Below, in pieces: positions 3 through 16,223 of a DNA stretch of 64,000 nucleotides (within the stretch, counting starts at the first letter, position 1; each line of letters starts with the position of its first letter). Origin of the DNA: an uncultured delta proteobacterium (GTDB lineage Bacteria > Desulfobacterota > Binatia > UBA9968); assembly GCA_963745035.1 (NCBI GenBank), contig CAVUVW010000021.1, forward strand, positions 128,001-192,000, read 5' to 3'. The position numbers and the translations under genes are program-made. The notes under the pieces were generated by a model. That model was not told the origin of the DNA, did no database searches, and worked only from the letters and a program-made list of their open reading frames with translations.

Positions 3-326
3 GGTCTCGGCGGCAACGACGAAGGCTTGACGTTCGATGTCACCACCGCCGATGCAGAAGACGCGGGCAAAAGAATCCTGCGCTTCGATTGCTTCTACAA
101 GAACCCTCATTATCACGTCGGCGCCTCCGGCGGCGAGAGCGCTGCCTACAAAATGAAAGACGAAGGCATCGAAGACCCGGTCCGCTGGACACTGGAGCAG
201 CTCAAGACCAGGTTTCCCGCCATGGTCAAACAAGCCGGCTACGACGAAATCGCCGAAAAAATCGATCAGAGCGCCGTCGCCGATCAGCTCACGCGGCTAG
301 AACGGGAAATAATCGCTAAATATTAA
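3..326 (+). CDS. conserved hypothetical protein, 5' end beyond window
   Basis: Frame open from window edge (GLGGNDEGLTFDV...) to TAA 324-326; LRFDCF...PHYH motif. Confidence 0.7.
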   Translation, partial: GLGGNDEGLTFDVTTADAEDAGKRILRFDCFYKNPHYHVGASGGESAAYKMKDEGIEDPVRWTLEQLKTRFPAMVKQAGYDEIAEKIDQSAVADQLTRLEREIIAKY

Positions 327-380
327 TGTCCCTTTAGGGGGATGGCTGAAATCCGTCACCTTCTGGCGAAGTGCGAGTTT

Positions 381-462
381 GTCATGCCGGCGAACGCCGG
401 CATCCAGGTTCATTGGCGGCGCATAATCAAAGAGACTGGATTCCGGTTTGCACCGGAATGAC
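381..462. repeat. REP-like palindromic doublet
   Basis: GTCATGCCGGCGAACGCCGGCATCCAG ... CTGGATTCCGGTTTGCACCGGAATGAC; a related half-site at ~37669-37692. Confidence 0.75.
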
Positions 463-569
463 GGGAAACCGGAGTCGACTTCCAGTTGACAAATTCAGAA
501 CCCCACGGCTTAGAGCCGAGGTTGTTCGGTTTTTGCTGAGCGCGCGAATACGGGCAAGATACAAAAACA

Positions 570-890
570 ATGTTAACCGGTGAGTGTAATCAATGCGGCG
601 CCTGCTGTTTCACGAAATCCGGCGCAGTCTGTGAGAATCTCGAAATTTTAATTCGGCCAGGCTTGCCCAACGCGACTCGGTGCAGGGTCTACTCTGAGCG
701 ATACGACGGCTTGCCGATACGAATGATCGCCAAAGACGGAAGGATTTTAAGGGGCTATTACTGCGCGAAAAATTCCCCGGCCGAAGTGTCAGTGATTATC
801 GAGATGGGGATCAAGAAAGGCGTGTGTTCGCTGACGCGTGTTGACCATGCAGATTCTAAAGGCAATCGAGTGTCAAGATGTAAGACTTGA
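570..890 (+). CDS. small cysteine-cluster protein (YkgJ / CxxCxxCC-like)
   Basis: CNQCGACC...C...CRVYSER pattern. Confidence 0.65.
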   Translation: MLTGECNQCGACCFTKSGAVCENLEILIRPGLPNATRCRVYSERYDGLPIRMIAKDGRILRGYYCAKNSPAEVSVIIEMGIKKGVCSLTRVDHADSKGNRVSRCKT

Positions 891-932
891 CTCTACTGCT
901 CTCTGCGAACGGCGATTCGAACAGGTGGTAAC

Positions 933-1992
933 TTGTTGCTGTTGACCAACGACGACGTGGAACAGGTCTTAACGATGGCCGACTGCGTCGATGTGTTGCG
1001 CCGTTTCTTTGAAGAGGAAGGCAAAGGCCAGGTGTTGACGCGGCAGCGCACGGAAAGCTGGCTGCCCCACCTCACGACCGATACTTTTTATCAGTGCAAG
1101 ACGATGGAAGGGGGAGTTCCTTACATCGGCAAGTACGTCATTCGAATCGATTCCAACGTAACCAGGAAAAAGCAGCAGGGTCAGTCGAGCCGCGTCGAGC
1201 ATGTTCCCTTCGGCAACGGGAGCTGGATGGGCATGTTGCTTGTTTTCTCTACCGAGACGGGCGAGCTGCTTGGCTGGATGCCCGACGGCTATCTACAGCG
1301 CACCCGCGTGGGTGCGTTGTATGCGCTCGCCGCCGATTACCTGGCGCGCCCGGATGCCGAAGAAGTCGGGCTGATCGGCTCAGGCTGGCAGGCCGGCGGG
1401 CAAATTCTCGGATTGCGCTGCGTGCGGAACATCAAGAAGGTTCGGGTTTTTAGTTCCAATGCCGATCGCCGCAATCGATTCGCCGACGAGTTGCAGGCGA
1501 GCTTGGGCATCGAAGTGCGTCCTGTCGTTGCCGCGCGGGATGCGTTCGCCAAAGCGGACATCGTCGCACTGGCGACCAACGCCAACGAGAAGGTCATGGA
1601 GTCGCTTTGGGTCGAGCCCGGGCAGCACCTGAGCTCCGTGCGCTTTCTCGAGCTCGACCCTCGCTCGTACGCAAGACTGCGACCGCGTGGTGGTCAACCG
1701 CGCCGAGCCGTGGATTCAAAATTATCATCTCGGCGAACTCTGTCCGCAGGATATCCGGGATGCCAAGGTCCCGCCCGCGCCGCCGGGCGCGATCGAGGCC
1801 CGCGAATTTTTCCGCCAGCGGATCAAAAGGACCGGAGCGCGCGAGAAGACCTTGTTTCCCAACGAAGCGAGCAATTACCAACTCGGCGGGCAGTTCGCCG
1901 CGGTGGCCGGCTTCGTCCTCGATCGGGCACGCGAAAAAGGATTGGGCCGCGACTTACCTTCGGAATGGTTTGCTCAAACACTGCTGCCGTGA
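933..1992 (+). CDS. ornithine cyclodeaminase / mu-crystallin family protein (frameshift near 1670)
   Basis: LLLTNDDV start, RTRVGA, GLIGSGWQA Rossmann motif; C-terminus continues in ORF 1687..1992. Confidence 0.85.
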
Positions 1993-2169
1993 CGCGGAAG
2001 CGGCGATTAAGAAGGACGATTGAATTGTTCGACTTCAAGATCGATAGCCCTGAAAGTGTCGCCTTGTCAGTTCTGTGAGGTTGTCGGGAAGTGAAACTCT
2101 GACTCGGATTTCTTCCCCAAAGGCGGGTCAACATGCGTTGCTGCGAGCATACGGCCGCGATACTCTGCA

Positions 2170-3039
2170 TTGGCAGAAGGAGATCAGAAGTGCCCTATGG
2201 CTTCACTGGTGATAGATTTCGATAAACTTGCTGATATCGGGGTAAAAGGTGTGCGCCGGGCGGCGGTTTTCATGGGCCTTGGATTAAACGCAGCACATGA
2301 TCCCGCCTTCAAAAAATACGAGCTGAGCAGCATTCAAAATATTGAACCGAGCACGATCCACATGGAATTGATTCCTGCTAATGTAAACGAGGAAACCTTG
2401 AGCCATTTCAAACGTGAATTCGGGACATGGATAATAACAAACGGATTGAGGGAGATAATCGAGCGATTTGCAGTTTACCTAGATGGTGTTAACCATGCAT
2501 GCCAGTGGATTGCTATAAATAAGCAAAACCTTCAATCGGACGACGCGGAAAGGCTGGATAAAAGTTTTCGCTTTAAGGGCATCGTCGATAAGCTACGTGA
2601 TCTTGAAGTGCGATTTGGCATCAAACCAAATCATCCAGAATATCTCGCGAGCATAAATCAAATGCGTAACTGTTTAACGCATCGGCTAGGCAGGGTAGGC
2701 GTGGAGGACTGTAATGGATATCAGCAGTTTGAACTAAAGTGGCTCGCGATGGAGTTTCAGATCCAATTGGAATCTGGAAAGATCATTACAGCAACCGACG
2801 TCCTTGGGAAGGTGTTACCTGAGGCGGGGACACTTCAACTAAAATTTGTGGAGCGCTGCAAGCCCTTTCCTTTAGGGAGTTTTGCACGCCTTGAGATGAA
2901 CGAATTGGCGGAAATCTGTAACTTTATTCTCAACTCAATACGCGCTGTAACCACTTCGGCGATTGAGTACGCAAAGGGCCAAGGAGTTCAATTAGTGACT
3001 CAGTCGCAAGATATCCCTAGCGCTGGCCGAAAATCCTAG
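2170..3039 (+). CDS. hypothetical protein with HEPN-like Rx4H motif
   Basis: 289 aa, visibly more AT-rich than flanks; SINQMRNCLTHRLG. Confidence 0.6.
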   Translation: MAEGDQKCPMASLVIDFDKLADIGVKGVRRAAVFMGLGLNAAHDPAFKKYELSSIQNIEPSTIHMELIPANVNEETLSHFKREFGTWIITNGLREIIERFAVYLDGVNHACQWIAINKQNLQSDDAERLDKSFRFKGIVDKLRDLEVRFGIKPNHPEYLASINQMRNCLTHRLGRVGVEDCNGYQQFELKWLAMEFQIQLESGKIITATDVLGKVLPEAGTLQLKFVERCKPFPLGSFARLEMNELAEICNFILNSIRAVTTSAIEYAKGQGVQLVTQSQDIPSAGRKS

Positions 3040-4374
3040 CAGGCTGCTGAAAAACTGTTGTTTTGTAAATTTCTTCTACTTTGGAAAACTGCACATATGT
3101 TAGGATGGCGCCGAATATAACTTCGGAGGCGTGGATGCGGGGATTGCAAGACGGACAAACGGGCATGTGGGCTTTTGTTTCCATCGAGGAACGAATTCCG
3201 AGCGACCATCCGTTGCGGCGGATTAAGCAGATGGCCGATCAAGAGCTTAAGAAGCTCTCGGGGGTGTTTAACCGGATGTATTCCCAAGTCGGACGACCGT
3301 CGGTGGCGCCCGAGAGGATACTGAAGTCGCTGTTGTTGATCGCACTGTACTCGGTGAGGAGCGAGCGGCAATTCAGCGAGCAGTTGGGTTACAATTTGTT
3401 GTTTCGCTGGTTTTTGGACATGGAGCTTGAGGAACAGAGTTTTGACGCCACGGTGTTCAGCAAGAACCGCGATCGGTTGCTGGAGCATGAGGTGGGCCGA
3501 TTGTTTTTCGACGCGGTGGTGAGACAAGCCCGAGCGGGCGGGCTGATGAGCGATGATCATTTCACCGTGGACGGGACTTTGATTGAGGCCTGGGCGAGCC
3601 TTAAGAGTTTTCGGCCCAAGGGAGAAGATCGGTCGGGAGATAACGATCAAGGCGATGGAGGCAACCGCTGGGTGGACTTTCATGGCGAGAAGCGAAGTAA
3701 CGAGACCCATGAGTCCAAGACTGATCCCGAGAGTCTGCTGATACGCAAGGGGCCGGGAAAAGAAGCGAAGCTTTGTTACGGGGCGCATGCCTTGATGGAG
3801 AACCGAAACGGCTTGTTGATCGATCTGATGGTCAGTCAGGCCACGGGCAGCGCTGAGCGGGAAGCCGCCAAGGACATGATCGAGCGTCAGCGGCGCAAAG
3901 GGGTGAAGGTAAAAAGTCTGGGAGCCGACAAGGGGTATGACACCGAGGACTTTGTCGGGTTTTTGCGCGGGCGAAAGATCCTCCCGCATGTGGCGGCCAA
4001 AAAGCGCGGTTCTGCCATCGATGGCAGAACGACTCGGCATCGGAGCTATAGCATCAGTCAACGGATACGAAAGAGAATCGAAGAGATCTTCGGTTGGGTG
4101 AAGACGGTGGGAGGGTTTAGGAAAACGCGTTTTCGGGGAACCGAAAAAACGCAATTGGCGGCGTGGTGGGTGGGAGCGGCGTATAACCTGGTGCGTATGG
4201 CGAAGTTGGCGGCCTAGGCGGTCTGCCAAAGGGGCAAAATAGATGCAGCGAGAGCTGAAAATCGCCTCTGTAGAGCAATCGACACTCATGTTTTCACTCT
4301 CTGCACTACTACACCGAAAAATTCTCTCTCTACGACGAAATCTATTCTTTTAAAGTGCCTTTTTCAGCAACCTG
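3040..4374 (+). mobile_element. IS5-family insertion sequence, complete
   Basis: TIRs CAGGCTGCTGAAAAA / TTTTTCAGCAACCTG (14/15); CTAG duplicated at 3036-3039 and 4375-4378. Confidence 0.93.
3081..4217 (+). CDS. IS5-family DDE transposase (true start may be 3105 or 3135)
   Basis: GRPSVAPE, SERQ, VDGTLIEAWAS, GADKGYD, RKRIEEIFGWVK. Confidence 0.93.
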   Translation: MENCTYVRMAPNITSEAWMRGLQDGQTGMWAFVSIEERIPSDHPLRRIKQMADQELKKLSGVFNRMYSQVGRPSVAPERILKSLLLIALYSVRSERQFSEQLGYNLLFRWFLDMELEEQSFDATVFSKNRDRLLEHEVGRLFFDAVVRQARAGGLMSDDHFTVDGTLIEAWASLKSFRPKGEDRSGDNDQGDGGNRWVDFHGEKRSNETHESKTDPESLLIRKGPGKEAKLCYGAHALMENRNGLLIDLMVSQATGSAEREAAKDMIERQRRKGVKVKSLGADKGYDTEDFVGFLRGRKILPHVAAKKRGSAIDGRTTRHRSYSISQRIRKRIEEIFGWVKTVGGFRKTRFRGTEKTQLAAWWVGAAYNLVRMAKLAA

Positions 4375-4516
4375 CTAGGGAACTCGACGGATTCGATGGC
4401 AAGCAAGAAATCTTCTTCCAGGAGACTCCGCCTGCAAGCGGTGCTCGGAATTGAAGTACTGACCGACTTTTGCCGAGGCTACAAAAAATAAATGATATTG
4501 GTTGGCTCTGGTGACT

Positions 4517-4607
4517 CGCGAAGTAAGCGGCAGGCGAAAATTTACGGTGCCCGTCAAGGAATTGTCAATTGCGCTAGTGCTCGCATATCCAATATCACTG
4601 GTCTTGT
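4517..4607 (-). promoter_or_regulatory. decayed copy of the promoter-attI platform
   Basis: aaatttac..tgtcaattgcg..tgctcg.atat.caatatcactggtct shared with 11634-11722; minus-strand TTGACA-N18-TAAATT; GTT crossover core not retained. Confidence 0.6.
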
Positions 4608-4667
4608 GAGGACAAATCCAACATCCACTGGATTCAGGACTACGTTATCCAGGTGGGACAAAGCTCA

Positions 4668-4817
4668 ATCGATGAACGGCAAGAATGCCTCGGCGATACC
4701 GACGAGATCATCATCCTGCAGCGCAAGATCTGGGAGCGGGAGATCAAAGCGCTCACGGATGGCAAAACGCTAAAGCACTGGGAACGGTCGCCGAGGCTCG
4801 CGGAAATGAGCTCTTAG
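4668..4817 (+). pseudogene. C-terminal fragment of a Rieske oxygenase alpha subunit
   Basis: Translates IDERQECLGDTDEIIILQRKIWEREIKALTDGKTLKHW, resembling DREHLGEGDRGIIMFRKLL of 41181..42353. Confidence 0.5.
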
Positions 4818-4822
4818 GCTAG

Positions 4823-4960
4823 TTCGGTGCCGCGCCGCTGCCGACTGCTGTTCAGTTCCTTCAACCGATCCCTCTTCTGGCTCTACTCACTGCGGAGATC
4901 ACTGCGTAAAGAGCTCAAAGAAAAGAAAGTCGGCGTGTCGAGCATCGGCTCGGGACGGAG
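4823..4960 (+). pseudogene. decayed internal fragment homologous to the binding-protein gene at 11861..12826
   Basis: RLLFSSFNRSLFWLYS...KELK.KK.GVSSIGSG matches 12121-12258. Confidence 0.8.
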
Positions 4961-5036
4961 CCGTACCTCAGTATCAGTAGTGTCACTGAACGGGCCAGTC
5001 TGGGTAGTTGCCAGTCACATTCCAGTGGCATCCGCG

Positions 5037-6024
5037 TTAGTCTCGTGCTGAATACCAGTCCAACACTCGTAAGGCGCGCAGGGTGTTCCACCGGCTCGGT
5101 CGGCCCTCGCCCTCGTCTATCTCGACCGGCATCTTGCCCGGGTAACGGGTCTCGAGCTGCCACCTGCCATCGTCGTCGCGCTTCGACGCGACCAGGCCGA
5201 TCGCCTCGGCTACGCGGTCGTCGGGCGCAACGCCGGCGCGGCGCAGGTACTCGAGCCCCCGCAGCACGTCGTAATGCCACCACGTCGGGAAGGCGAAGCG
5301 CGTCCACGCGGCGTTGCTCTTGCGATCTCGCTCGATCACCTCGCCGGTCGATCTTCCGGCGGAAGAGGCGGCGCTCGATGAGGTACTCCTGCCCGCGGAG
5401 ACGGGCCCCGGTCACCGCTGGGCTGCCGCCGACGGCCCGTTCGTATTCGAGCAGGGCTTCGAGCACGCAGATCGTGGTGTTGAACGACGACCGCGTCGAG
5501 CCGTTGGCGGCCTCGCAGTTCCAGCCGCCGTCGGGCAGCTGCTCGATGAGCAGCCGGTCGACGATGCTCCGGACGTCCTGACCGAAGTAGGCGCCGACCG
5601 CTGCGACCTGCCCGTTGATGCAGGGCTCGACCTCGCCTTCAAAGAAGGCATTGCCGTCACATTCCTGCGGGCCACACCCTCGCCACGTCACTCGCTCGCG
5701 GACGAGGCCCACCGCGCGCCGTGCCGCGTCGCTCGCGGGATCGAGACCCATGTCCCGCAGCAGCATCAGCGCGTGCATCGTGGAGTTCCACCCGTGGTTC
5801 CACGCCGCGCCGCCCCATCGCCCGTCGGGCGCCTGGAGGGCGAGCAACCGCGCACCCGCACCCTCGGTGGCGACCCGCGTGCGCTCGGCCGCGACCTCGT
5901 CCGCGGGCGCACCTATCAGGTCCCGCATCACCTGCCAGCGGATCGAAGAGTCAGAATCAAGCAGCCAGCGTATGACCGATCTCTTTGACGTCGAGACTTG
6001 CCGTTTGGCTGGATTAGTCGGCAT
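5037..6024 (-). CDS. cassette gene: prenyltransferase / squalene-cyclase-like alpha-barrel protein (frameshift ~5350)
   Basis: QAPDGRWG and QLPDGGWNCE QW-like repeats, WHYDVLRGL; ORFs 4915..6024 and 5037..5339 join. Confidence 0.75.
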
Positions 6025-6039
6025 ATTACGCTGTTGGTG

Positions 6040-6092
6040 GCCTAACGCGAGCGCTCAGCCGCGCGGCGTCCGGCTGCAGCGCGTTGTTAGGC
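6040..6092 (-). other. attC site (53 bp)
   Basis: Minus: GCCTAAC-AACGC-GCTGCAGC-13nt-GCTGAGC-GCTCGC-GTTAGGC; canonical R''/L''/L'/R' spacing with an extrahelical base. Confidence 0.88.
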
Positions 6093-6217
6093 GCCCAGCC
6101 ATCGCCAGTCCACAACATTGCAACGACCTGCCGAGTGTCCACCGTGCATCGAGCCAAATCCTGAGGCTCGAGTAGTCCGTCACCAACGATAATCGTGAGT
6201 TGATTCATCGCCCGTGA

Positions 6218-7045
6218 TCAGCGTGAGTTCCCTCCGCGCCACAGTGCGAGCAGCAAATCGTTTAGAGGTCGTCCGGTGAACTGGACCTCGTGGCCCGCGC
6301 CGCCGGCCACCGCCCGCGACGCGCCGATGCGTTCAGCAAGGTCGTCGCATATCGCGTCGAACCCGGCGCTGTGTCCACCTGATACGACAAGTTTTGGGAA
6401 AGTAGCCGCCGCCAGCTCGGCCAGCGGGAGGTCGCCCTGCCAGATCGGTCGCCCATGGCGCAACACGGGCACCAGAGGCACGGCGGCTGTGATCAGCTCG
6501 GGGGGAAGCGCGTCGGGATCACTCCCCACCGCCTTCAAAAAGCGGATGACCCAATCTTCATCGGGGAGGTTCTGACCCCAGAGGCCGCGCACTTCGTCCA
6601 CAAGAGCCCGCGCGGCCGGATGGGCTTGGCCTAACGCGAATGCCCCTGGTTCCAGCAACGCTACGGATAGCGTCGCGTCCGGACGGCGGGCCGCGGCGAA
6701 GAGCACGCCGAGGCCCCCGTAAGAATGACCCACGAGGTGCGCACTATCGTCCATGAGCTCGGCGATGTCGTCGGCATCGCGTAAGAAATCCTCACCTTCC
6801 GCGACGGGGCTTTTCCCATAGCCACGCCGGTCTGGCACCAAGAGGCGAAAGCCCTCATCGGCGAGCGGTCGCTGCGCCTGCCACTCCTCGCCTCCCGTCG
6901 CGAGCGAGCCGTGCACGAGCACCACGCGCGTGCCGGTGCCCCAGGAATCTACGAAGAGGTCGCTCATTTGCGCGTGCCTGGCGTAGACGACCACAAGATA
7001 GGCAGAACGCTCGCCGGATGCATGGCGAGATTCATGCCGCCCCAT
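6218..7045 (-). CDS. cassette gene: alpha/beta fold hydrolase
   Basis: VLVHGS, DRRGYGKS, GHSYGG nucleophile elbow, GAGH; start may be at MSDLFV. Confidence 0.9.
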   Translation of the reverse strand: MGRHESRHASGERSAYLVVVYARHAQMSDLFVDSWGTGTRVVLVHGSLATGGEEWQAQRPLADEGFRLLVPDRRGYGKSPVAEGEDFLRDADDIAELMDDSAHLVGHSYGGLGVLFAAARRPDATLSVALLEPGAFALGQAHPAARALVDEVRGLWGQNLPDEDWVIRFLKAVGSDPDALPPELITAAVPLVPVLRHGRPIWQGDLPLAELAAATFPKLVVSGGHSAGFDAICDDLAERIGASRAVAGGAGHEVQFTGRPLNDLLLALWRGGNSR

Positions 7046-7096
7046 TCACGCGTCATGCACATGAGTTGCTCCACCAATCTAACTTTCTGTTTCGTT

Positions 7097-7189
7097 GACT
7101 AACGCCCTGCGGTTGAGCGGCCGGCCCCACGTCCTGCTCGGCCGTGACGAGCCGTTCGGCGGCCGGTTCGCTCCAATCGCGCGTTAGGC
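7097..7189 (-). other. attC site (93 bp)
   Basis: Minus: GCCTAAC-GCGCG-ATTGGAGC...GCTCAAC-CGCAGGGC-GTTAGTC with internal CGGCCG inverted stem. Confidence 0.82.
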
Positions 7190-7665
7190 CGCCAGCGAGT
7201 GTGCTCGCCGAGCGCCTGATCGAGGGCCTTCGTGAGGACACCGACATCGAACCTTCGCAGCGCGCGGCGAGAACGCTGCTGTGCTGCTCTGGATGGCCAC
7301 TTGGGCCCGAACAGCCGGACTGCGGTGTACATCAAAAATGCGCGCTCTTCAGATACGCCGTCGCAGAGCATCGCGTCGTAGAACATGCGATGGACTTCCT
7401 CGTGCGGCTTGGCTTTGTCCTGGCAGGCAACGTCATGCACGACGGTCGCGCGCCGATAATCACCAATATATGGCGTACCGACGATCTTGGACCACAGGAC
7501 CTCCGGAATACTTGCCCCGTTTATAATTCGGCCTGCAGGTGCATCCCACCGGACTCCTCGGGAGTCGATGAAAGCGAAATCGCTCAACAGCTGCATATCG
7601 CGATCCTCGTCTTCGTGGCGACGCCACTGTGTATCCACCTGCCCTTCGAATTGGGGAACGTTCAT
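7099..7665 (-). CDS. cassette gene: DUF1353-family protein (frame reads through attC)
   Basis: GASIP...YRRATVVHDVAC...MYTAVRLFG. Confidence 0.85.
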   Translation of the reverse strand: MNVPQFEGQVDTQWRRHEDEDRDMQLLSDFAFIDSRGVRWDAPAGRIINGASIPEVLWSKIVGTPYIGDYRRATVVHDVACQDKAKPHEEVHRMFYDAMLCDGVSEERAFLMYTAVRLFGPKWPSRAAQQRSRRALRRFDVGVLTKALDQALGEHTRWRPNARLERTGRRTARHGRAGRGAGRSTAGR

Positions 7666-7703
7666 ATTCGTCTCCTTTGGACCTGGGTGGTTGCCCTGTA
7701 GCG

Positions 7704-7804
7704 GACTATCGCCATGCCGCTCAGCCGCGAGCGGCGATCACTAAGACCCATGAGTCAGCCTGATACCAGCCGCGCCGCTCGTCGGCTGCAGCGGCGTGTT
7801 AGAC
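7704..7804 (-). other. attC site (101 bp), R' mutated to GATAGTC
   Basis: Minus: GTCTAAC-ACGCC-GCTGCAGC-CGACGAGCGGCG...CGCCGCTCGCG-GCTGAGC-GGCATGGC-GATAGTC. Confidence 0.82.
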
Positions 7805-8198
7805 CGCATGCGCAGCTGGTGCGGTAACCCACCTGCCACAGCGAGACAAACGTGCAGGCCAAGAATATCCCGTCAGCGGTCAGGTTGACCGCGCCTGAGA
7901 AATCAGAAAGGGCCAAGAGATAGATCATGGCGTAGACGATTCCACCACCCGCCACAAAGGCCAGGACGCTCCCGAGCCAGTGACGCCGAAACAGCAGAGT
8001 GGCCGCCAACAAGTAGAGAGGAATGAAGAACATATCTGGATAGATCAGCGACTCGTATGCGCCGGCCGGAAATGCGGCTGGTCGCTCCCAGGTTCCATTG
8101 AGCACCGAGAAGACTGCAAATCCCTGAAACAATCCCCAAGCGGCGAACCAACATATCGCGAACCATGCTCTTCCGATTTCAGTACGTTGATGTTGCAT
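7755..8198 (-). CDS. cassette gene: small 4-TM membrane protein
   Basis: Four hydrophobic segments; lies between the attI-like site at 8220 and attC at 7704. Confidence 0.7.
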   Translation of the reverse strand: MQHQRTEIGRAWFAICWFAAWGLFQGFAVFSVLNGTWERPAAFPAGAYESLIYPDMFFIPLYLLAATLLFRRHWLGSVLAFVAGGGIVYAMIYLLALSDFSGAVNLTADGIFLACTFVSLWQVGYRTSCACGLTRRCSRRAARLVSG

Positions 8199-8217
8199 CT
8201 TCCAAGTATCTCTGTCG

Positions 8218-8333
8218 GTCTAACTATTGAGTGAACTGATCACGTATATTGGATCTACAAAATTTACTATCGCGATGATTTACAACTTGTCAATGAAACA
8301 TTTCCGTTCGTATATCCAATATACGTGGTCAGT
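8218..8333 (-). promoter_or_regulatory. attI-like site plus upstream promoter (platform B)
   Basis: Crossover G|TTAGACCG complementary to CGGTCTAAC of the next attC; 30/32 nt identical to 11598-11629; minus-strand TTGACA at 8288-8293; 19/20 inverted repeat 8235-8254 / 8314-8333. Confidence 0.75.
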
Positions 8334-8375
8334 ATAGTACCAATGTACCTGACATAACTTAGCGGCAGGCTTCCT

Positions 8376-9932
8376 TCACGCAAACAGGTGCGCCAGGACT
8401 TCACGATGCTTGCTCGGTTTGAAGTGCGAAGCCTCGATCCATGTGAAGCGCTCCTGCCGGCCGGAGGCGATCGCCTCTTGCGCGGCAGCGCGATCGGTCA
8501 GACTGTCCGTCAGCGCCACGACGCGTACCTCGCGCGAGGCCTGCGCGAGCGTGGTGAGCTCGTAACGACAGCCGGCGTTGTGCGCCTGAAAGCCGCGCAG
8601 ATCCATCAGCACCACGTCGCTCTGGCGCATGAGCGCCGCCAGCGCGTCCTGCCACGTCGTGTCGTGACAATAACATTCGTTGACCCGATAACGACCATCC
8701 ATGTCAGCCGCCATGTCGAACGCGGCGATGCGCCGCGCGACATCCGCGGGACTGACAACAAAGCGCTCGGCCAGTCGCCGGTCGAGAAACTGGAAGATGT
8801 CGTCGGCGTCCAGTGTGCGATCGGCGAGATCGGTTCCGGCGATCATCACCGTGTTCCCGCTCAGACGCCAGCGTTCGATGACGTGGTCGAACAGGGACTG
8901 CACCTGCTTGTCCCGCTGGAAAACTCGCAAGACCAGGAGCGTCGGCGCTCGCCCGGATCGCCGCCCGCGACGAGCAACCAACATGACTGCGGGAATCCAT
9001 AGCAGCGGCAGGTACATTGCGAACGCTGCCGCGCCTGCGGTAGTGAAAAGTGTCAGTGCGCGGTCGGTCAGCGCGAAAGCCCATACACCGGTGAATACCA
9101 CCAACAAATCGGAGAGCCACTTGCGCGAGTATGCGCGCCCGAGCGCACGCCCCAACATCCGCACCGGCCACCACGCAATGATCGAAGACAGCAACACGAA
9201 GAGCGCGAACACGATCAAGACGCCACTCCACCCCGGCAATTCTTCCAGCGGCGCGATCAAAGACTTCAGCAAAGGCGACTCGCGCTGGGCCATGTACGTC
9301 AGTGCATCGAGACCCGCGAGCCCAGACGACACCAACACCGCGGCCGGCATGAGCAACCACGGTGCGATGGCGCGGGTGGCATTGCCCAGATAGACCAGCA
9401 ACACCAGCGGCAGCGACAGCCCGCATTCGCTGGCCATCAGCGCCAGCACCCACAGCGGCCGAGGCTCGATCGAACGCCACAAGGCAACGACGAAGGACGC
9501 GCCGCCCCACAGCAACAACGTTCCGAACAAGCGCCCCCAAGACCAGCGCCAGATGAGCGCCAACGCGGGAATCATCGGCCATACGTGCAACAGCGCCATG
9601 ACAGCCACCCGTCTCGGCAGCAGAGGCTCGCCGGGAAATTGAAGCGCATACCAGATCGAGGCGCTCGTTATTGCCATCAGGCATGACAGCGCGATCAGCA
9701 GCAGGATCAGCTGCATTCCGGCGCGCCGATTGTCGGCCAGCGAAACCGGCAGCGGCAGCGGAACGTCGGGCGCCGTCTCCGCGACAGGCGCGGCCGATTC
9801 TTCGGCGTGCGGCGCACGCATCAATTGCTGCATCCGGCGTCGATATAAGCGGGCGATGAGCCAAGCCGCGACACAGGAGAGCAGCACCGACACGATCAGC
9901 ACGGCATACAGCTTACCGGCATTTGGTGTCAT
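8376..9932 (-). CDS. cassette-borne multi-TM protein with C-terminal cytoplasmic alpha/beta domain
   Basis: About 9-10 hydrophobic helices then VLRVF..D, WQDAL..L...SDVVLMDLRGF...NAGCRYEL. Confidence 0.75.
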   Translation of the reverse strand: MTPNAGKLYAVLIVSVLLSCVAAWLIARLYRRRMQQLMRAPHAEESAAPVAETAPDVPLPLPVSLADNRRAGMQLILLLIALSCLMAITSASIWYALQFPGEPLLPRRVAVMALLHVWPMIPALALIWRWSWGRLFGTLLLWGGASFVVALWRSIEPRPLWVLALMASECGLSLPLVLLVYLGNATRAIAPWLLMPAAVLVSSGLAGLDALTYMAQRESPLLKSLIAPLEELPGWSGVLIVFALFVLLSSIIAWWPVRMLGRALGRAYSRKWLSDLLVVFTGVWAFALTDRALTLFTTAGAAAFAMYLPLLWIPAVMLVARRGRRSGRAPTLLVLRVFQRDKQVQSLFDHVIERWRLSGNTVMIAGTDLADRTLDADDIFQFLDRRLAERFVVSPADVARRIAAFDMAADMDGRYRVNECYCHDTTWQDALAALMRQSDVVLMDLRGFQAHNAGCRYELTTLAQASREVRVVALTDSLTDRAAAQEAIASGRQERFTWIEASHFKPSKHREVLAHLFA

Positions 9933-10027
9933 CGCGCTTTTAGTACAGGGAGTGGTTCTGGAGGCCGACTACGCCGATGCGCATCGATCCGGGGCACCAC
10001 GATATGGTCCCGGGCGCACTTCGCGGT

Positions 10028-10119
10028 GCTCAATGACCCAAGCTCAGCGACCCGCCCACGGGACGTGTGAATTGCAACCAGAGTGCGAGGGCCGGGTTCG
10101 CTGCCGCGCATGGTTGGGC
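10028..10119 (-). other. attC site (92 bp), R' degenerate (ATTGAGC)
   Basis: Minus: GCCCAAC-CATGC-GCGGCAGC-GAACCCGGCCC...GGGCGGGTC-GCTGAGC-TTGGGTC-ATTGAGC. Confidence 0.75.
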
Positions 10120-10159
10120 GGCTCGTAAATCAGACTCACCCGTGTGGGCCTTAACGTAG

Positions 10160-10753
10160 TCATACACCAGTTCCCATCTCGGAAAGCCGTCGGTTCGACT
10201 TAGAGTTCGTGGTGCTTGCGCGTCGAAACAGCAAAGCCGATCCGACAAACAGCATGGCGAAGAATGCATTGAGACCAAATACTCCCACTACGCCCGGTGG
10301 TTCCATGGTAATTTGAGGCTTCGCGGTAACGAGAGCAATCACAGGGACCAACATCTGAGCAATTGCCATCGTGAACAACGCGCGTGCCATTCCATGGGGT
10401 CGGAAGCGCGCGACGAGGGCACCAATGAATCCGACAGCGAGCACCCCGAAATACATCAAGTTGGGGCCTCCCGGTTTTCCGATGATGCCAACGGCAGCAT
10501 TCACCCAGACGAGGAGGAGACCTGACACAACTGCAATACCAACAGCGACTCGATACGTTGAGTTGTCCGACCTTCTCGCAACAAGCTCATACGTCAGACC
10601 AGCACCGAACAGGAGGACAAAGGCGAAAATAAAATCGTCCAGTTTCCAATTCCAACCTTGTCCATCTACTCCATCGCCTAATAGCGTCAATACCAAGGGT
10701 ATCAGCAGTAGGAGCCCTGTCCCAACCGCAATGCGCATAATGTTTTTTTGCAT
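10160..10753 (-). CDS. cassette gene: conserved multi-TM membrane protein
   Basis: WNWKLDDF, LLVWVNAAVGIIG, NLMYFGVLAVG, ARFRPHGMARAL; start uncertain (ORF open to 10876). Confidence 0.75.
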   Translation of the reverse strand: MQKNIMRIAVGTGLLLLIPLVLTLLGDGVDGQGWNWKLDDFIFAFVLLFGAGLTYELVARRSDNSTYRVAVGIAVVSGLLLVWVNAAVGIIGKPGGPNLMYFGVLAVGFIGALVARFRPHGMARALFTMAIAQMLVPVIALVTAKPQITMEPPGVVGVFGLNAFFAMLFVGSALLFRRASTTNSKSNRRLSEMGTGV

Positions 10754-10961
10754 AAATGATGTAGGTTCGACCAAAGTGCGAAGCCGAATTATCACTGAAG
10801 GTTTGCTCATTCCCTCGCAACGACGACGCCGTGAAGGGGATGGCCAATAGGCAACCCCCGCTGAAGCTCGGCGCAAAAGCGCTCCGCCTGTGCTGAGTCG
10901 CGGTAATACAAACCCGTTGGCAAAGCTGGACGGTCTGCAAGCGCGGTGCTCGTACGGAGAC

Positions 10962-11042
10962 GCCTAACCGCGCGCCTTCACCGGGCTATACCAGCCAGCA
11001 AATCGCCGCTGGTCAAGCGTCCGGTGCAAGGCGTGGTTAGGC
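10962..11042 (-). other. attC site (81 bp)
   Basis: Minus: GCCTAAC-CACGC-CTTGCACC-GG...CCAGC..GCTGG...CC-GGTGAAG-GCGCGCG-GTTAGGC, 8 bp after the cupin stop. Confidence 0.88.
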
Positions 11043-11050
11043 GGGCTGCC

Positions 11051-11521
11051 TCATTTCTTTCTCGGGTCGTCCGCGGGATTGACGTACGTAACAGCCCATG
11101 GACCGGTTCCATTAAGCTGCACCACGACTTCTTCCTTGGTCCAGGCAAAATGGTTTGTCTTTGGCTGGATGATCATCATGCTTCCCGGACTCAGGGCCAT
11201 CGGCTTCTTCATGTCCAGTTTGTCGCCCACGCCCATATAAAAGGTTCCGGAAATCACCGTCACTCGCTCCACGGCCGGATGCCAATGCGCGGGAATCTGA
11301 TAGTTTGCAGGGAACTTCAATCGGAACGTGAACGGAACGGCCTCGTTCAGCGGGCCTTCGATGACAGCGATCTTAGCGCCGGGCGGCAAAGACGGAATAT
11401 CGCTCCATTTCAGATCATTTGGCGAGATCATCTTGTGACCGCTCGACTGAGCCCAACCTGAAGGCATGCCAACAAGAAGGGACACAATCACTGCGAATGC
11501 GATGTAAAGCATGGATTTCAT
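11051..11521 (-). CDS. cassette gene: exported cupin-domain protein
   Basis: Signal peptide, PAHWHPAVERVTVISG and later H; RBS AGGAGG. Confidence 0.9.
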   Translation of the reverse strand: MKSMLYIAFAVIVSLLVGMPSGWAQSSGHKMISPNDLKWSDIPSLPPGAKIAVIEGPLNEAVPFTFRLKFPANYQIPAHWHPAVERVTVISGTFYMGVGDKLDMKKPMALSPGSMMIIQPKTNHFAWTKEEVVVQLNGTGPWAVTYVNPADDPRKK

Positions 11522-11595
11522 GGCGTCCTCCTTTTCAATTCAGTCAACAAGGGACCAATAGGATGATTGGGCGAGCATTGGTCCCGGTCATGCCC

Positions 11596-11722
11596 GCCTA
11601 ACTATTGATTGAACTGATCTCGTATATTGACTTGCAAAGAAGCACCAGCGGGAAATTTACGTTACCAAACAATGAGCTGTCAATTGCGTTCATGCTCGTA
11701 TATTCAATATCACTGGTCTCGT
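11596..11722 (-). promoter_or_regulatory. attI-like site plus Pc-like promoter (platform C)
   Basis: Crossover G|TTAGGCGGG complementary to CCCGCCTAAC of attC at 11036-11045; minus-strand TTGACA-N18-TAAATT at 11683..11654. Confidence 0.78.
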
Positions 11723-11860
11723 ATGCGAGCACCGCCGGATACGTGCCGCAGAGAGAAGCCAAATGTGTTTGACACAAAAGCCCATTCCGGGAGAGGACTT
11801 TGTGAAGATCAAGCTGAGCTGGCTAGCTTGCGAGTCAACGCTCTGTAAAAGGAAAAGATC

Positions 11861-12826
11861 ATGAAAGTTGTTCGCTGCGGCTTTTTACTGCTTTGTCTGA
11901 TGCTGCCGTCCACCGGATTCGCGACGACGGTGAACGTGGCGGTGCCGAGTTTCAGCATGTCTCTGGTCGCTTTCATGGCGGCGAAGGAGAAAGGCTACTA
12001 CCGGCAGGAGGGGCTCGACGTCAATTTTGTGCTGATGCCGGCGGCAATTGCGAGCAGGGCTTTGATCGCGGGGAATGTGGATTTTGCGACGGTGGGCGGA
12101 TCGGCTTTGACTGCGGCCCTCGGCGGCGCGCCGCTGCGGCTGCTGTTCAGCTCGTTCAATCGGTCGCTCTTCTGGCTTTATTCGCGGCCGGAGATCACCG
12201 ACGTGAAAGAGCTCAAGGGAAAGAAAATCGGCGTGTCGAGCATCGGCTCCGGACCGGACTCGATGGTGCGCGATCTGCTGCGAAGCCACGGTTTGCAAGG
12301 CGGAAAGGACGTCGCCATCCTGGCCGTCGGTGTGGACTCGAGCCGGTATGCGTCGCTGCTCAACAATCTGACCGACGCGGTGGTCTTGTCGACGCCGTAC
12401 AATTTCACCGCCCAGGACGCCGGATTCAAAGAACTGGTTTCCTTCGTGAAGCACGACTGGATCGAGCTCCAGGGCTGCATCGTCACGCGTGAAGCGATGC
12501 TGAAGAGCAACCCTGCTCTGGTCGAGAAGTATACCTTGGCAACGCTCAAGGGCCTGCTGAGCGCGCGCGGCAATCGCGCGGCGACCCTGCCGGTCGTCGC
12601 CAAGATGATGAAAGTGAAGCCCGAACTGGCGGCCCGCATCTACGATCTTTCGCTGCCCGCGATGACGAGTCACGGCGAATTGACCGAGGATGTGCAATCG
12701 AAGGCGATCGAGCACGTCGTGAAGCAGATGAACCTCAAAGAACCGCCGAGCTTGCAGCGGATCTACGACTTCGCGCCGCTCGAAAAGGCGCGCCGGCAAC
12801 TGGAGTCGCAGGGCTGGAAGCCGTGA
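11861..12826 (+). CDS. NitT/TauT (SsuA/THI5-like) substrate-binding protein
   Basis: Signal peptide, AKEKGYYRQEGLDV, LKGKKIGVSSIGS. Confidence 0.9.
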   Translation: MKVVRCGFLLLCLMLPSTGFATTVNVAVPSFSMSLVAFMAAKEKGYYRQEGLDVNFVLMPAAIASRALIAGNVDFATVGGSALTAALGGAPLRLLFSSFNRSLFWLYSRPEITDVKELKGKKIGVSSIGSGPDSMVRDLLRSHGLQGGKDVAILAVGVDSSRYASLLNNLTDAVVLSTPYNFTAQDAGFKELVSFVKHDWIELQGCIVTREAMLKSNPALVEKYTLATLKGLLSARGNRAATLPVVAKMMKVKPELAARIYDLSLPAMTSHGELTEDVQSKAIEHVVKQMNLKEPPSLQRIYDFAPLEKARRQLESQGWKP

Positions 12827-12880
12827 GCAGAGGGAGAATCGACGGATGTGCTTCATTTCACCACGAAGGGCACGAAGAGC

Positions 12881-14554
12881 CCAGCGCGGCCGAGCCGCAA
12901 CCAAAATGACAGATTGGTTTCATTGGTGTAAACGGTGCTCATGTCTACGATATACAATGCACCGACGAAAGAGGCTGCGCATGCCTTTGTACAGCGTCAC
13001 AAAAGCGATGTCATCGGAGTTTTGCACGGTTGGGATCGATTGCGACTGCAAGGCACGCTTCGAAGTCTCTATTACCAGCCGGTGATGGAAGAGTACCTGA
13101 GGCAAGCAGGAGTTTTGTGGAAAGATTTCAAAATCTTCGCCACCACACTGACGGCTCGTGTGCGCCAAGCGGCAGTGGATCTGGCAGCGAAGCATCAGCG
13201 GCCGATGCTTTATCTTAACTCCAGCCGCACACGCAAGGAGGACGAGGCTCGCAAGATCCAGCAGCGTGACCAGATTGAGTTGGGGCTGATTGCTGTGTTT
13301 AGTTGCGTGGAGCCGTGCCGTACGTGGTTTTTGCGCGGCAATCGTATTACCCGAAAGCTTGAGCTTAGGCTTGAATGGGGCAAGTGCATCCACCTGTACT
13401 TTTACTGGATGCATGAACAATTGGGATTTTTGCATCTTCGGTTGCAGACTTGGTTTCCTTTTCTGATTCAAATTTGTCTCAACGGACGAGGATGGCTGGC
13501 CCGGCAGATGGATCAGAAAAAGCTGCGCTATCGGCGAGAGGATAACTGTTTTCCGTGGATTGACGATGTCTCGCGCGCCCAAGCACTGATGGATCAGCAA
13601 CACCGCACCAATTGGCCCGTGCTTTTGCACCCACTGCTCAAAAAGTGCCACCCTTTGCACGCCGAGATTAGCCGTCCCATTGAGCGTGACTACTACTGGA
13701 CGGCGGCCGAGACCGAGTACGCCACCGATGTTATGTTTCGTGACCGGGCCGCGCTCGGACGCATTTATCCCGCCTTGGTGCATCACGCGGTGATGACGTT
13801 TGGCAGTGAACAAGTGCTGCGGTTTATGCACCGCTCGGGACAGGTGGGTCTCCAAGAGGTGCAAAGCGATCGGCGTCGCTGGCCTGACGGCGTCCGAGTC
13901 AAGCACTGGGTCAATAAGAACTCGCTTAAATGCTATGATAAGGGCAGTGTCTTGCGCGTTGAGGCAACGATCAATGAACCGAGAGATTTTCGCAGCTTTC
14001 GCGCCGCGGAGAAAAGTCCTGGCGGCCCTAAGCGCTGGCGCGAACTGCGCCGCAGCGTATCTGACTTTCACCGACGCTCTGAAGTGAGTCGGAAAGCCAC
14101 CGAGCGATACCTTACCGCTCTGGCTTGTGTCCATGTGCAAACCCGGCTCGCCGAGCAAACCGCGCAAGTCTGCCGGCCCGTACGGCGGTACGGACGCCGT
14201 TACCGAGCGCTTAATCCTCTGGGAGAAGGCGATGCTCAACTCATGACCATCGTCAACCGTGGAGAATTTTCGCTCAACGGGTTTCGCAACCGTGACCTGC
14301 GTTCCCATCTCTACCCTGCGATCAAGGACAAACAAAAGCAACACACAGAAATGGCGGCAGTGGGACGTCGCTTGCGGCTGTTGCGGGCGCATGGCTTGAT
14401 TGCAAAAGTGCCCAAAACGCACCGTTACATCGTTACTGAAAAAGGTCGCAACATCATCACGGCGTTGTTGGCCGCGCGTAACGCAAGCACTGAGAAACTC
14501 ACAGCTTTGGCCGCGTGATTTGCGCAGATGGAGAAAATTTTCAAGCATAGTAGT
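12881..14554 (+). mobile_element. unclassified single-gene mobile element inserted in a REP-like repeat
   Basis: Removing it restores TTCACCACGAAGGGCACGAAGAGC|ACGAAGG, matching the intact repeat at 16281-16310; no TIR or clear TSD; left-end hairpin GCGGC-CGA-GCCGC. Confidence 0.75.
12935..14518 (+). CDS. putative transposase / Rep-like protein with C-terminal winged helix
   Basis: 527 aa; NSLKCYDKGSVLRVEATIN motif; GFRNRDLR...RLRLLRAHGLIAKVPKTHRYIVTEKG. Confidence 0.7.
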   Translation: MLMSTIYNAPTKEAAHAFVQRHKSDVIGVLHGWDRLRLQGTLRSLYYQPVMEEYLRQAGVLWKDFKIFATTLTARVRQAAVDLAAKHQRPMLYLNSSRTRKEDEARKIQQRDQIELGLIAVFSCVEPCRTWFLRGNRITRKLELRLEWGKCIHLYFYWMHEQLGFLHLRLQTWFPFLIQICLNGRGWLARQMDQKKLRYRREDNCFPWIDDVSRAQALMDQQHRTNWPVLLHPLLKKCHPLHAEISRPIERDYYWTAAETEYATDVMFRDRAALGRIYPALVHHAVMTFGSEQVLRFMHRSGQVGLQEVQSDRRRWPDGVRVKHWVNKNSLKCYDKGSVLRVEATINEPRDFRSFRAAEKSPGGPKRWRELRRSVSDFHRRSEVSRKATERYLTALACVHVQTRLAEQTAQVCRPVRRYGRRYRALNPLGEGDAQLMTIVNRGEFSLNGFRNRDLRSHLYPAIKDKQKQHTEMAAVGRRLRLLRAHGLIAKVPKTHRYIVTEKGRNIITALLAARNASTEKLTALAA

Positions 14555-14570
14555 ACGAAGGTCGAAGGGG

Positions 14571-14653
14571 TTCACCGCGGAGGCGCGGAGTACGCGGAGA
14601 TTAGAGTTTTGATTAACCATTTCCAAGTCTGCGGACTCGGCGTCTCTGCGGTG
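14571..14653. repeat. REP-like inverted doublet
   Basis: CACCGCGGAGGCGCGGAGTACGCGGAG ... TCTGCGGACTCGGCGTCTCTGCGGTG. Confidence 0.8.
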
Positions 14654-14735
14654 CAATGTTCTTTGCCGCTGTGTCCCGCAAGTCCCAAAGGCGCTAAGAG
14701 GATCTAAGATTCATTTCACCACGAAGGACGCAAAG

Positions 14736-16223
14736 ATGGCGGAATCGAAATTCAATATTCTGGAAACGACGATCGAAGACATCCACCGCGGTTATGCCGC
14801 AGGAGAATTGACCTGCCGTCAGCTTGTCCAGGCATACCTGGACCGCATCGCGGCTTACGACAAGCAGGGCCCGGCGCTCAACACGATCATCACGCTCAAC
14901 GCGCAGGCGATCGAAGAGGCCGAGCGGCTCGATGCGCAATACAAAGCTTCCGGTTCGACGGGGCCGCTCCACGGCATTCCCGTCATCGTCAAAGATCAGG
15001 CGGATGTAAAAGGGATGCCGACGACCCTCGGGTCGGTTTTGTTCAAAGACTATTTTCCCGACCGCGATTCGTTCGTCGTCGAGCGGCTGAGGAAAGCCGG
15101 CGCGGTGATCCTGGGCAAATCCGCGCTCGGCGAAATGGCGGGCGGCGACACGCACGGCTCACTCTTCGGCTCGACCCGAAACCCGTACGACTTGGAGCGC
15201 ACGGTCGGCGGTTCGTCGGGCGGCTCTGCCGCCGCCGTAGCTGCGAATTTTTGCGCCGTGGCGATCGGGCAGGAGGGCTTGGCATCGATCCGCCGGCCGG
15301 CGGCGTGGAATTCGGTCGCCGGCATGCGCACCAGCGCCGGGCTGGTGAGCCGGGGCGGCGTGTACGGCGGCTGGCCGTCGCTCGCGGGATCGCTGGGGCC
15401 GATGACTCGAACGATCGCCGACTCGGCCGCGCTCCTGGACGTGATCGTCGGCTACGATCCCGAAGATCCGCAGACCGCCTACGGGGTCGGGCACGCGCCG
15501 GCGAGCTTCAAGAAATTTCTCGACAAAGACGGTCTCAAAGGCGCGAGGCTCGGTATTCTGCGCGAGCCCATGGGCATCGACTCGGAACCGGAGTCGGACG
15601 ACTTCCGCAAAGTGGACGAAGTGTTCGGCAAGGCGGTCAACGACCTCAAGGCCGCGGGCGCGGAGGTTATCGATCCGATCGTGATCCCGAAGCTGAAAGA
15701 GCTGCTCGCGAAGCGAGCGGCAGGGCCGGGGGAGGGCGAGCAGTCGTTCAAAAACTATTTTGGTCGAAGCAAGAACCCGCCGTTTCAGTCGATCGCTGAA
15801 GCCGTCGCATCACCCGAATTCGCCAAAGTTTCGCGCAACGCCCAGGTCCGCATGAAAGCGTCGCAGGACGCAAACAAACACTATCAGGCTCTGCTGGCGC
15901 GCGAAGAGCTGATGACCCATTTGCTGAAGACGATGGCGGATCATCGGCTCGATGCGATCGTGCATAAAGCCGTGGAGCATCAGCCGACGTTGATCAGCGA
16001 AGGGCTAAAACCGCCCTACGTGAACTACAAAGGCGCGCCGCACCTGAACACTTTCCTGGTTTTTGTTCCGTCGGTGGTCGTGCCTGCCGGCTTTACGCGC
16101 GACGATCTTCCGGCCGGCATCGTCTTTCTCGGGCGGCCCTACGACGACGGCAACATGCTCAAGTTCGCCTACGCGTATGAGCAGGCGACGAAGCACCGCC
16201 GGCCGCCGAGTTTTGGAGGATAA
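14736..16223 (+). CDS. amidase signature family protein
   Basis: GPLHGIPVIVKD, GGSSGGS, ASIRRPA. Confidence 0.93.
   Translation: MAESKFNILETTIEDIHRGYAAGELTCRQLVQAYLDRIAAYDKQGPALNTIITLNAQAIEEAERLDAQYKASGSTGPLHGIPVIVKDQADVKGMPTTLGSVLFKDYFPDRDSFVVERLRKAGAVILGKSALGEMAGGDTHGSLFGSTRNPYDLERTVGGSSGGSAAAVAANFCAVAIGQEGLASIRRPAAWNSVAGMRTSAGLVSRGGVYGGWPSLAGSLGPMTRTIADSAALLDVIVGYDPEDPQTAYGVGHAPASFKKFLDKDGLKGARLGILREPMGIDSEPESDDFRKVDEVFGKAVNDLKAAGAEVIDPIVIPKLKELLAKRAAGPGEGEQSFKNYFGRSKNPPFQSIAEAVASPEFAKVSRNAQVRMKASQDANKHYQALLAREELMTHLLKTMADHRLDAIVHKAVEHQPTLISEGLKPPYVNYKGAPHLNTFLVFVPSVVVPAGFTRDDLPAGIVFLGRPYDDGNMLKFAYAYEQATKHRRPPSFGG

Follow-up and report, generated by a model that had tools for sequence, protein, structure and literature searches.

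Clusters of attC sites lacking an integron integrase, termed CALINs, were introduced by Cury et al. (2016, PMC4889954), and the passages of that paper on CALINs raise two possibilities for them, service by an integrase encoded elsewhere or origin by loss of the integrase gene intI. The same passages treat the insertion site attI as not searchable and state that the cassette promoter (Pc) cannot promote the expression of CALIN cassettes after the split. A CALIN in a Shewanella prophage is headed by the same attI as the complete integron in the same replicon, according to the section on it in a 2023 report (PMC9892861). Class 1 and class 2 mobile integrons contain unusual cassettes of the ΔattI type (Partridge 2009, as cited; Gonzales Machuca et al. 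2026, PMC12901181); in the sections of PMC12901181 that deal with them, such units were recombined (excised and inserted) by IntI1 in assays, and the published cases mostly keep 8-18 nt of attI, although 244 nt are kept in one case and all 65 bp of attI1 in another. The accounts of integron layout describe intI as transcribed toward attI and the cassettes in the co-oriented ('reverse') chromosomal integrons of Treponema (PMC3607928), and attI as lying immediately downstream of intI in archaeal integrons (10.1101/2022.02.06.479319). At attG, the integrase is described as placing cassettes at chromosomal sites away from intI (10.1101/2022.09.11.507474). We found no literature on integrons in Binatia, and no paper whose main text describes multiplied attI-promoter modules without an integrase. 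Here we analyze a cassette array in a 64,000-nt stretch of DNA (the window) from an uncultured delta proteobacterium of the Binatia, in which an attI site with its own putative promoter, together called a platform, occurs in two complete copies and one truncated copy.

The window covers positions 128001-192000 of C21, a 450-kb contig of the 7.43-Mb source genome (G000), and its positions 4490-11740 are a chromosomal integrase-less integron cassette array, that is, a CALIN. Seven to eight open reading frames (ORFs), all on the minus strand, are interspersed with five attC sites, and by their fold z-scores three of these are strong hairpins, one is short and canonical, and one is weak. The preliminary description of the window had likewise counted seven co-oriented genes and five attC sites. 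Five attC sites without an integron integrase nearby place the array within the CALIN definition (at least two attC sites, integron integrase not nearby), and the arrangement of a complete integron, with intI adjoining attI and cassettes, is absent, as neither the window nor C21 contains intI. The lack of a tyrosine recombinase noted earlier for the window extends to the whole contig: none of the 20 PF00589 matches and none of the 12 TIGR02249 matches falls on C21. The place that intI takes in complete integrons of the genus is occupied by an NMT1/SsuA-type substrate-binding protein gene on the other strand, in agreement with the transporter gene described before. We believe, with a probability of about 0.7, that this locus is an integrase-less array with two complete and one truncated attI-promoter modules, whose integrase is encoded elsewhere.

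The repeated site on which this interpretation is built was recovered by exact pattern matching. The 32-mer pattern has exactly two matches in the window (8220-8251 and 11598-11629; none in 100 shuffles), which by direct reading share 30 of 32 positions, and even when up to three mismatches are allowed, a 27-mer version is found only at those two places in the entire genome. On the minus strand both copies end with ...CAATAG|TTAG. Behind copy A, the nine nucleotides past the G pair 9/9 with the R'' end of the next attC (TTAGGCGGG / CCCGCCTAA, 11034-11042), and behind copy B eight of nine are complementary to the R'' of the next attC (8/8 over a shorter stretch). Both the repeat and this complementarity had been reported before and hold here; the truncated third copy, C, at 4490-4607 is an addition. 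Read in the cassette orientation, the unit contains three direct CTCGTATAT-type motifs at fixed positions, followed by a promoter-like sequence and a core that ends with ...GTTCACTCAATAG|TT, the cassette insertion point. The promoter-like sequences are TTGACA-18-TAAATT in copy A (11683->11654), TTGACA-16-GATAGT in copy B (8293->8266), and TTGACA-18-TAAATT in copy C (4568->4539), each matching the sigma-70 consensus at 10 of 12 positions. They are the only three 10/12 matches in 4300-12000, and all face the array. Among 19 aligned copies of the unit, the TTGACA -35 box is present in 17, a TAnnnT -10 box at 18 nt in 14, and the full set of three CTCGTATAT-type motifs in 10. With conserved sigma-70 boxes that lie upstream of attI and face the cassettes, the unit can be classed as carrying a putative Pc-type promoter. 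As lexA adjoins intI in this lineage, the CTCGTATAT repeats were considered as LexA boxes, and this idea was dropped, as the palindrome upstream of lexA on contig C6 of G000 (TACTG-N10-CAGTA) differs from them.

Comparison within the genus identifies the unit as attI. Window 11590-11740 was searched against 60 relatives, 30 of the same genus and 30 outside it; the unit was found in 11 of the 30 congeners and in none of the 30 genomes outside the genus. Eighteen core-bearing copies from 12 genomes, including G000, align over ~150 nt, and in all 18 the conservation stops at ...TCAAT(A/G)G|TT, with unrelated sequence beyond. Seven continuations past the crossover are seen (GTTAG, GTTAA, GTTCT, GTTGG, GTTGC, GTTAT, and GTTCG), so the site is followed by variable cassettes elsewhere in the lineage. 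In two congeners, 8 nt separate the unit from the stop codon of an intact intI that precedes it in the same orientation (G006:C138, 471 bits; G014:C15, 466 bits; the TIGR02249 integron integrase cut-off is 265 bits). The copy at G003:C32 adjoins a fragment of intI that neighbors lexA, two further copies retain ~105 nt from the 3' end of intI, and the remaining copies abut unrelated genes, namely those for glutathione transferase, binding proteins, a molybdenum oxidoreductase subunit, and an IS91 transposase. Because the unit adjoins intact intI at two loci and fragments or 3' ends of intI at others, it is the attI region of an integron type of this genus, and the 32-mer of the window is a genuine attI present in two integrase-less copies. 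Two conditions that would have spoken against the preliminary description, a 32-mer that is the attI of no intI in the lineage and a lack of variable cassettes behind it elsewhere, were both checked, and neither applies. The window site is predicted to be bound and recombined by an integron integrase.

The single intI of G000 itself gives a similar picture. It lies at C6:42038-43168 (445 bits), is transcribed toward its cassettes, and encodes an integrase 68% identical to that of G006 over 338 residues. Its first cassette junction, CTAACTATTAAGTGAAC on the plus strand, equals the core of the window site at 16 of 17 positions, and the start of its first cassette is complementary (9/9) to the attC of that cassette. 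Of 15 junctions in G000, 4 have an exact complement of the 9 nt past the G within 2 kb downstream, compared with 1 among 208 decoy pairings; if up to one mismatch is allowed, the counts are 9 of 15 and 39 of 208. For the 18 window-type copies, the exact counts are 3 of 18 compared with 7 of 304 decoys, and those with at most one mismatch are 11 of 18 compared with 57 of 304. This 9-mer criterion is strict: the junction at C14:612935 fails it, yet has a canonical attC with a matching 7-nt R''. We note that lexA is directly upstream of intI in two genomes (G000:C6, L015 13292-13975; G003:C32, L023 267-875), and that the C6 lexA ORF is LexA-like for ~75 residues and then apparently out of frame, with the TACTG-N10-CAGTA palindrome upstream. 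In G006:C138, the region upstream of intI contains a small helix-turn-helix (HTH) gene and a run of GTTCAA repeats that recur every 9 nt (L021 2804-3125).

Platforms outnumber integrases both in the source genome and in the genus. G000 has one intI above the cut-off, compared with 17 sites that carry the core. These sites fall into at least three sequence types, and 14 of them end exactly with AATAG|TTAG; their excess over intI agrees with the dispersed solo sites proposed in the preliminary description. A search with the 17-nt core and up to two mismatches gave 13 matches in G000, one of them probably spurious. A second platform family of ~236 nt, with the core ...GGCTCACTTAATAG|TT and the promoter-like TTGACA-17-GATATT, is found at 13 places in G000 with E below 1e-10, using a profile of six full copies. 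One of the 17 sites is beside the intact intI and another, C22:3244, has a collinear 27/30-nt DNA match to the intI 3' end; the others are without intI. At the protein level, no remnant of intI was recovered on C22. The second family was matched in 24 of 30 congeners, in 6 of 6 other genera of the same taxonomic family, in 4 of 5 genomes of a second taxonomic family, and in none of 19 genomes of a third, a tally in which some matches are partial, up to 12 candidates per genome were scored, and the unpublished G035 is included. It abuts broken intI genes in G021:C75 and G007:C165. The C6 intI ORF (L015 12039-13169) extends into a stretch that shares homology with the distal end of platforms of the second type. 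Across the 31 genomes of the genus, intI above the cut-off is present in only 9, including G000 and the unpublished G005, and is uninterrupted and near full length in 7. Our home-made attC detector (AAC...GTT ends plus folding) returned 1798 candidates genome-wide on one strand, too unspecific for array mapping; requiring TAAC/GTTA ends left 11, and the detector was used locally only, with its output checked by eye.

Platforms also occur inside arrays. At least four arrays contain an internal platform in the same orientation as the first one: A->B in the window, 41879->35555 on C6, 3244->2317 on C22, and 1057867->1048247 on C14. In the window, the attC at 10028-10119 is followed by the ORF 8376-9932 and then by platform B, which replaces the attC of this ORF. 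By its sequence order, this attC-ORF-attI unit may be regarded as a ΔattI-type cassette, with a damaged R' box in the upstream attC. In that attC the crossover G of R' is replaced by A, and the site is probably inactive. In G008, a related platform copy with the same variant distal end as copy B follows a different gene.

Comparisons of orthologous loci inform on cassette turnover. The platform, an identically truncated stump of intI, and the two genes that follow it are common to G003:C34 and G014:C14. Over this whole stretch, 38-47 of every 50 aligned columns are identical, compared with 12-25 per 50, the random level, on the cassette side, and the drop is located exactly at the crossover. 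The two lineages thus parted after the integrase had been lost, and their cassettes differ, which argues for exchange at an integrase-less site. At a second pair, G000:C14:612935 and G018:C15, the platform and flank are 97.7% identical over 1706 nt, the homology stops at GTTAGGC, with 6 kb of unrelated sequence beyond it; the G000 site is followed by one cassette that has a canonical attC, and the G018 site by at least three attC-like sites. Such differences argue for exchange at sites without their own integrase, which may have been carried out by an integrase encoded elsewhere or before the loss of intI.

A highly conserved palindromic repeat of ~75 nt (AGGATTGAACTGAA...TTCAGTTCAATCC) accompanies many platforms. 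It has 35 matches in G000 (22-mer with at most four mismatches), is found in co-oriented arrays at a spacing of 1.3-2.7 kb, and is often directly behind a canonical attC R' box. On C10, C11, C13, C14, and C26 of G000, it flanks the second platform type plus one or two cassettes on both sides, and it is located at a constant distance beyond five window-type platforms in other genomes as well as beyond full-length copies of the second type. The palindrome might represent a second class of attC, a very small non-autonomous element, or the boundary of an array. At G000:C13:1117500-1126500, an array of the palindrome and a platform copy has a group II intron domain inside it (L018 1620-1761; RF02005, 62 bits). 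Rfam scans of three loci other than the window gave a group II intron domain only.

The solo platforms might be relics only, that is, integrons that have lost intI, with cassettes inserted earlier, recombination ended, and the promoter at most still relevant. In-place loss of intI is one origin of solo platforms, because C6:35555 keeps the flanks of intI without the gene: an HTH gene and a GTTCAA repeat run of the kind that flanks intI in G006 are found ~130 nt away from this platform (C6:35884-36154), and the ~1-kb intI is cleanly missing there. Stumps of intI adjoin platforms at G003:C32, G003:C34, and G014:C14, and the 27/30-nt match at C22:3244 belongs here too. As the G003 and G014 stumps and C6:35555 show, several solo platforms clearly arose by intI loss, and a relic is the true origin of at least some of them. 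At E<=1e-30, intI was not matched in some of the genomes with multiple platforms, among them G029 (99% complete) and G004 (92%). The window array has a partly fossilized look: the R' box is damaged in two of its five attC sites (GATAGTC, with GAT for GTT, at 7711-7705, and ATT at 10034-10028, an R' assignment that rests on homology with the attC at C14:611650-611730), one attC folds weakly, and one gene looks frameshifted. Further, the last ~14 conserved residues of the C6 integrase after ...IYTHVL are replaced by 31 unrelated ones, and this integrase may be impaired, because its model match ends at 301/315. The promoter scan overall gave 4 sites compared with 2.6 +/- 1.8 in shuffles, counted as consensus matches only, the G000/G018 difference of at least 6 kb could reflect a larger rearrangement, one of whose breakpoints is at attI, and no locus orthologous to that of the window emerged in 30 congeners when window 11800-14800 was used for a synteny search. 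All these points weigh against our favored explanation. Because of the last one, the turnover evidence covers the orthologous loci and not copies A and B; the loading in trans proposed in the preliminary description thus finds support at the integrase-less G003/G014 and G000/G018 loci and does not extend to the two window copies. A pure relic origin is nevertheless unlikely, in our judgment, because orthologous sites with an identical intI truncation carry unrelated first cassettes, the pair with 97.7% identical flanks differs wholly past the crossover, and independent deletions are not expected to give such uniform distal ends beside unrelated genes.

A related idea is that the unit itself is mobile and brings a promoter with it, inserting at cassette boundaries either as an attI-ended cassette or as a palindrome-bounded non-autonomous element, so that the window copies would be insertions. 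The replacement of an attC by copy B, the shared distal end of the G008 copy behind a different gene, and the position of the palindrome, at a constant distance and on both sides of platforms with one or two cassettes in G000, fit this idea, as does the excision and insertion of attC-ORF-ΔattI units by IntI1 in the assays described in PMC12901181. On the other hand, neither window copy adjoins the palindrome, none of whose 35 matches is on C21, some solo copies demonstrably come from in-place intI loss, and no target duplication or empty site was identified. We regard the idea as doubtful, and it is compatible with our favored explanation rather than opposed to it. A very improbable alternative is that the 32-mer is the 3' half of an unusual attC, or an artifact of assembly or duplication. 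The core does resemble the L'-R' half of some attC sites of the lineage, such as ...CTCAACCCAATAGTTAG at C19:201648, and a 27-nt inverted repeat in copy B folds (z -3.45). This inverted repeat is specific to copy B, and folding gave no hairpin for copy A (z +0.78), so the unit is not an attC; by sequence reading, the complementary R''-L'' half is not present upstream, and in complete integrons the unit is the first junction after intI. A hidden R'' half was therefore rejected on sequence reading and folding. A collapsed or duplicated assembly is unlikely as well, because high identity between the copies is confined to ~40 nt and their flanks differ.

The explanation we favor, an integrase-less array with platforms served by an integrase encoded elsewhere, is carried at the sequence level by the attI identity of the unit, junctions that obey the cassette rule, modules that greatly outnumber intI, and unrelated cassettes at orthologous integrase-less sites. 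In this genus, intI faces its cassettes, and the ~150 nt from its stop codon to the first cassette contain, in this order, the three repeats, the putative TTGACA-18-TAAATT promoter, and the core. Copy A heads the window array and copy B is an internal platform in place of the attC of the 518-residue gene, and each would drive transcription of the cassettes behind it. That transcription may be re-started within the array had been proposed before, and the evidence for it is the conserved sigma-70-like promoters. The CTCGTATAT repeats would bind a protein, either the integrase or a regulator. The integrase acting on the window sites could be that of C6, or an earlier or incoming one, and we infer that copies A and B were probably loaded in trans and not before a loss of intI. 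We also offer, tentatively, a broader picture of a distributed integron, in which the module is uncoupled from intI and present in ~15 or more chromosomal copies per genome, some of them within arrays, one resident or visiting integrase serves the promoter-bearing docks, and the module spreads as an attI-ended cassette or a palindrome-bracketed unit that seeds new arrays.

Table 1 Features of the array and its surroundings (window coordinates, unless a contig of G000 is given).
Feature	Position	Strand	Remarks
Insertion sequence, 20-nt terminal inverted repeats (95% complementary)	3035..4379	+	transposase ORF 3081-4217; Pfam DUF772, DDE_Tnp_1
Platform copy C, truncated	4490..4607	-	putative promoter and two repeats kept, attI core gone; 77% identity to 11640-11722
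Binding-protein gene, internal fragment, paralogous to 12137-12254	4842..4956	+	direct repeats, 81-92% identity; far end of array
Cassette gene 7	4915..6024	-	no Pfam family; weak terpene-cyclase-like repeat, TIGR03463 only E 0.0097
Possible attC remnant behind last cassette gene, unconvincing	4984..5044	-	R''-like GACTAAC; fold z -0.48
attC, short canonical	6040..6092	-	R'' GCCTAAC, R' GTTAGGC; fold z -1.8
Cassette gene, alpha/beta hydrolase	6218..7045	-	Pfam Abhydrolase_1, E 1.9e-17
attC	7097..7189	-	R'' GCCTAAC, R' GTTAGTC; fold z -3.7
Cassette gene, DUF1353	7099..7665	-	Pfam DUF1353, E 9.7e-19; ORF extends into attC
attC, first cassette behind platform B	7705..7804	-	R'' GTCTAAC complementary to cassette start; R' degenerate; fold z -4.9
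Cassette gene, 147 residues, family-less	7755..8198	-	Pfam and NCBIfam-type profile searches
Platform copy B, inside array, directly after gene 8376-9932	8220..8350	-	core 8220-8236, crossover between 8224 and 8223
ORF of 518 residues, family-less	8376..9932	-	attC 10028-10119 upstream, platform B downstream
attC	10028..10119	-	R'' GCCCAAC, R' ATTGAGC; pairing in centroid fold only, z -0.84
Cassette gene, hydrophobic protein, family-less	10160..10876	-	ORF list, family searches
attC, first cassette behind platform A	10962..11042	-	R'' CCCGCCTAAC 9/9 complementary to cassette start; fold z -6.1
Cassette gene, cupin-fold protein, signal-like N-terminus	11051..11521	-	Pfam Cupin_2, E 7.9e-06, below curated cut-off
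Platform copy A, array head	11598..11740	-	core 11598-11614, crossover between 11602 and 11601; repeats; putative promoter
NMT1/SsuA-type substrate-binding protein gene	11861..12826	+	Pfam NMT1, E 9.4e-24; divergent from array
Palindrome sites in G000	C11:128604-149403; C13:1118852-1124576; C14:130761-135780 and 611585/613171; C2:62225-64976; C10:16613/18658

Further features of the locus are as follows (Table 1). Cassette gene 7 is apparently frameshifted, as suggested by two overlapping ORFs, with its C-terminal part in the frame of 5037-5339, and the 60-residue ORF 6026-6208 is part of the alpha/beta hydrolase cassette. At the far end of the array, 4653-4956 is a patchwork of a 54-residue C-terminal gene fragment followed by a 115-nt binding-protein fragment (81-92% identity to 12137-12254). 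The insertion sequence is ~110 nt away from the truncated copy C, and just left of it is an AT-rich, family-less ORF of 289 residues (2170-3039) that may be foreign DNA. On the array's opposite side, a 1.7-kb segment (12855-14561) has three 100%-identical copies in G000 (C21, C19, and C6) and counterparts with 68-72% identity in two congeners. Its long ORFs (12935-14518 on the plus strand and 12920-14656 on the minus strand) matched no Pfam or NCBIfam family, and the repeat is probably an unclassified insertion sequence. An Rfam scan of window 1-16000 gave zero matches.

Integrase-less clusters outnumber complete integrons. Whether such clusters are dead remnants or belong, as functioning components, to a larger system has been unclear, largely because their insertion sites were unrecognizable. 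In this lineage, the insertion site and its putative promoter are recognizable by sequence, which allows a count (17 in one genome) and a comparison among relatives, and the loading and expression of arrays away from the integrase become directly testable with defined sites and integrases. Internal promoter-bearing sites are suggested as one route to expressing cassettes deep in arrays. attG sites are minimal and degenerate, whereas the sites described here are a conserved ~150-240-nt promoter-bearing module homologous to true attI regions. The attI just past the intI stop codon in G006, G014, and on C6 of G000 resembles the arrangement in Treponema and archaeal integrons, whose accounts in the passages cited above describe one attI per integron and report no dispersed integrase-less copies; here, such copies are dispersed. 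Like the CALINs in the passages of PMC4889954, the window array contains two or more attC sites, co-oriented cassettes, and no nearby intI; unlike them, the arrays here keep a recognizable attI and their own putative promoter, at 17 sites in one genome. The array is headed by attI like the CALIN in PMC9892861, which as described there is one case with one extra attI, whereas here several module families are present in many copies per genome across the genus, with internal copies and turnover evidence. The ORF 8376-9932 with platform B resembles ΔattI-type cassettes in having the order attC-ORF-attI inside an array; in the sections of PMC12901181 on them, those cassettes are found in plasmid and transposon integrons with intI, whereas the unit here carries a whole ~130-150-nt putative promoter-bearing module in a chromosomal, integrase-less array. 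Internal attI-derived sites in arrays (PMC12901181) and a CALIN with its own attI (PMC9892861) are thus already in print, as far as the cited sections go, and what is new here is the copy number of the attI-promoter modules together with the evidence for turnover.

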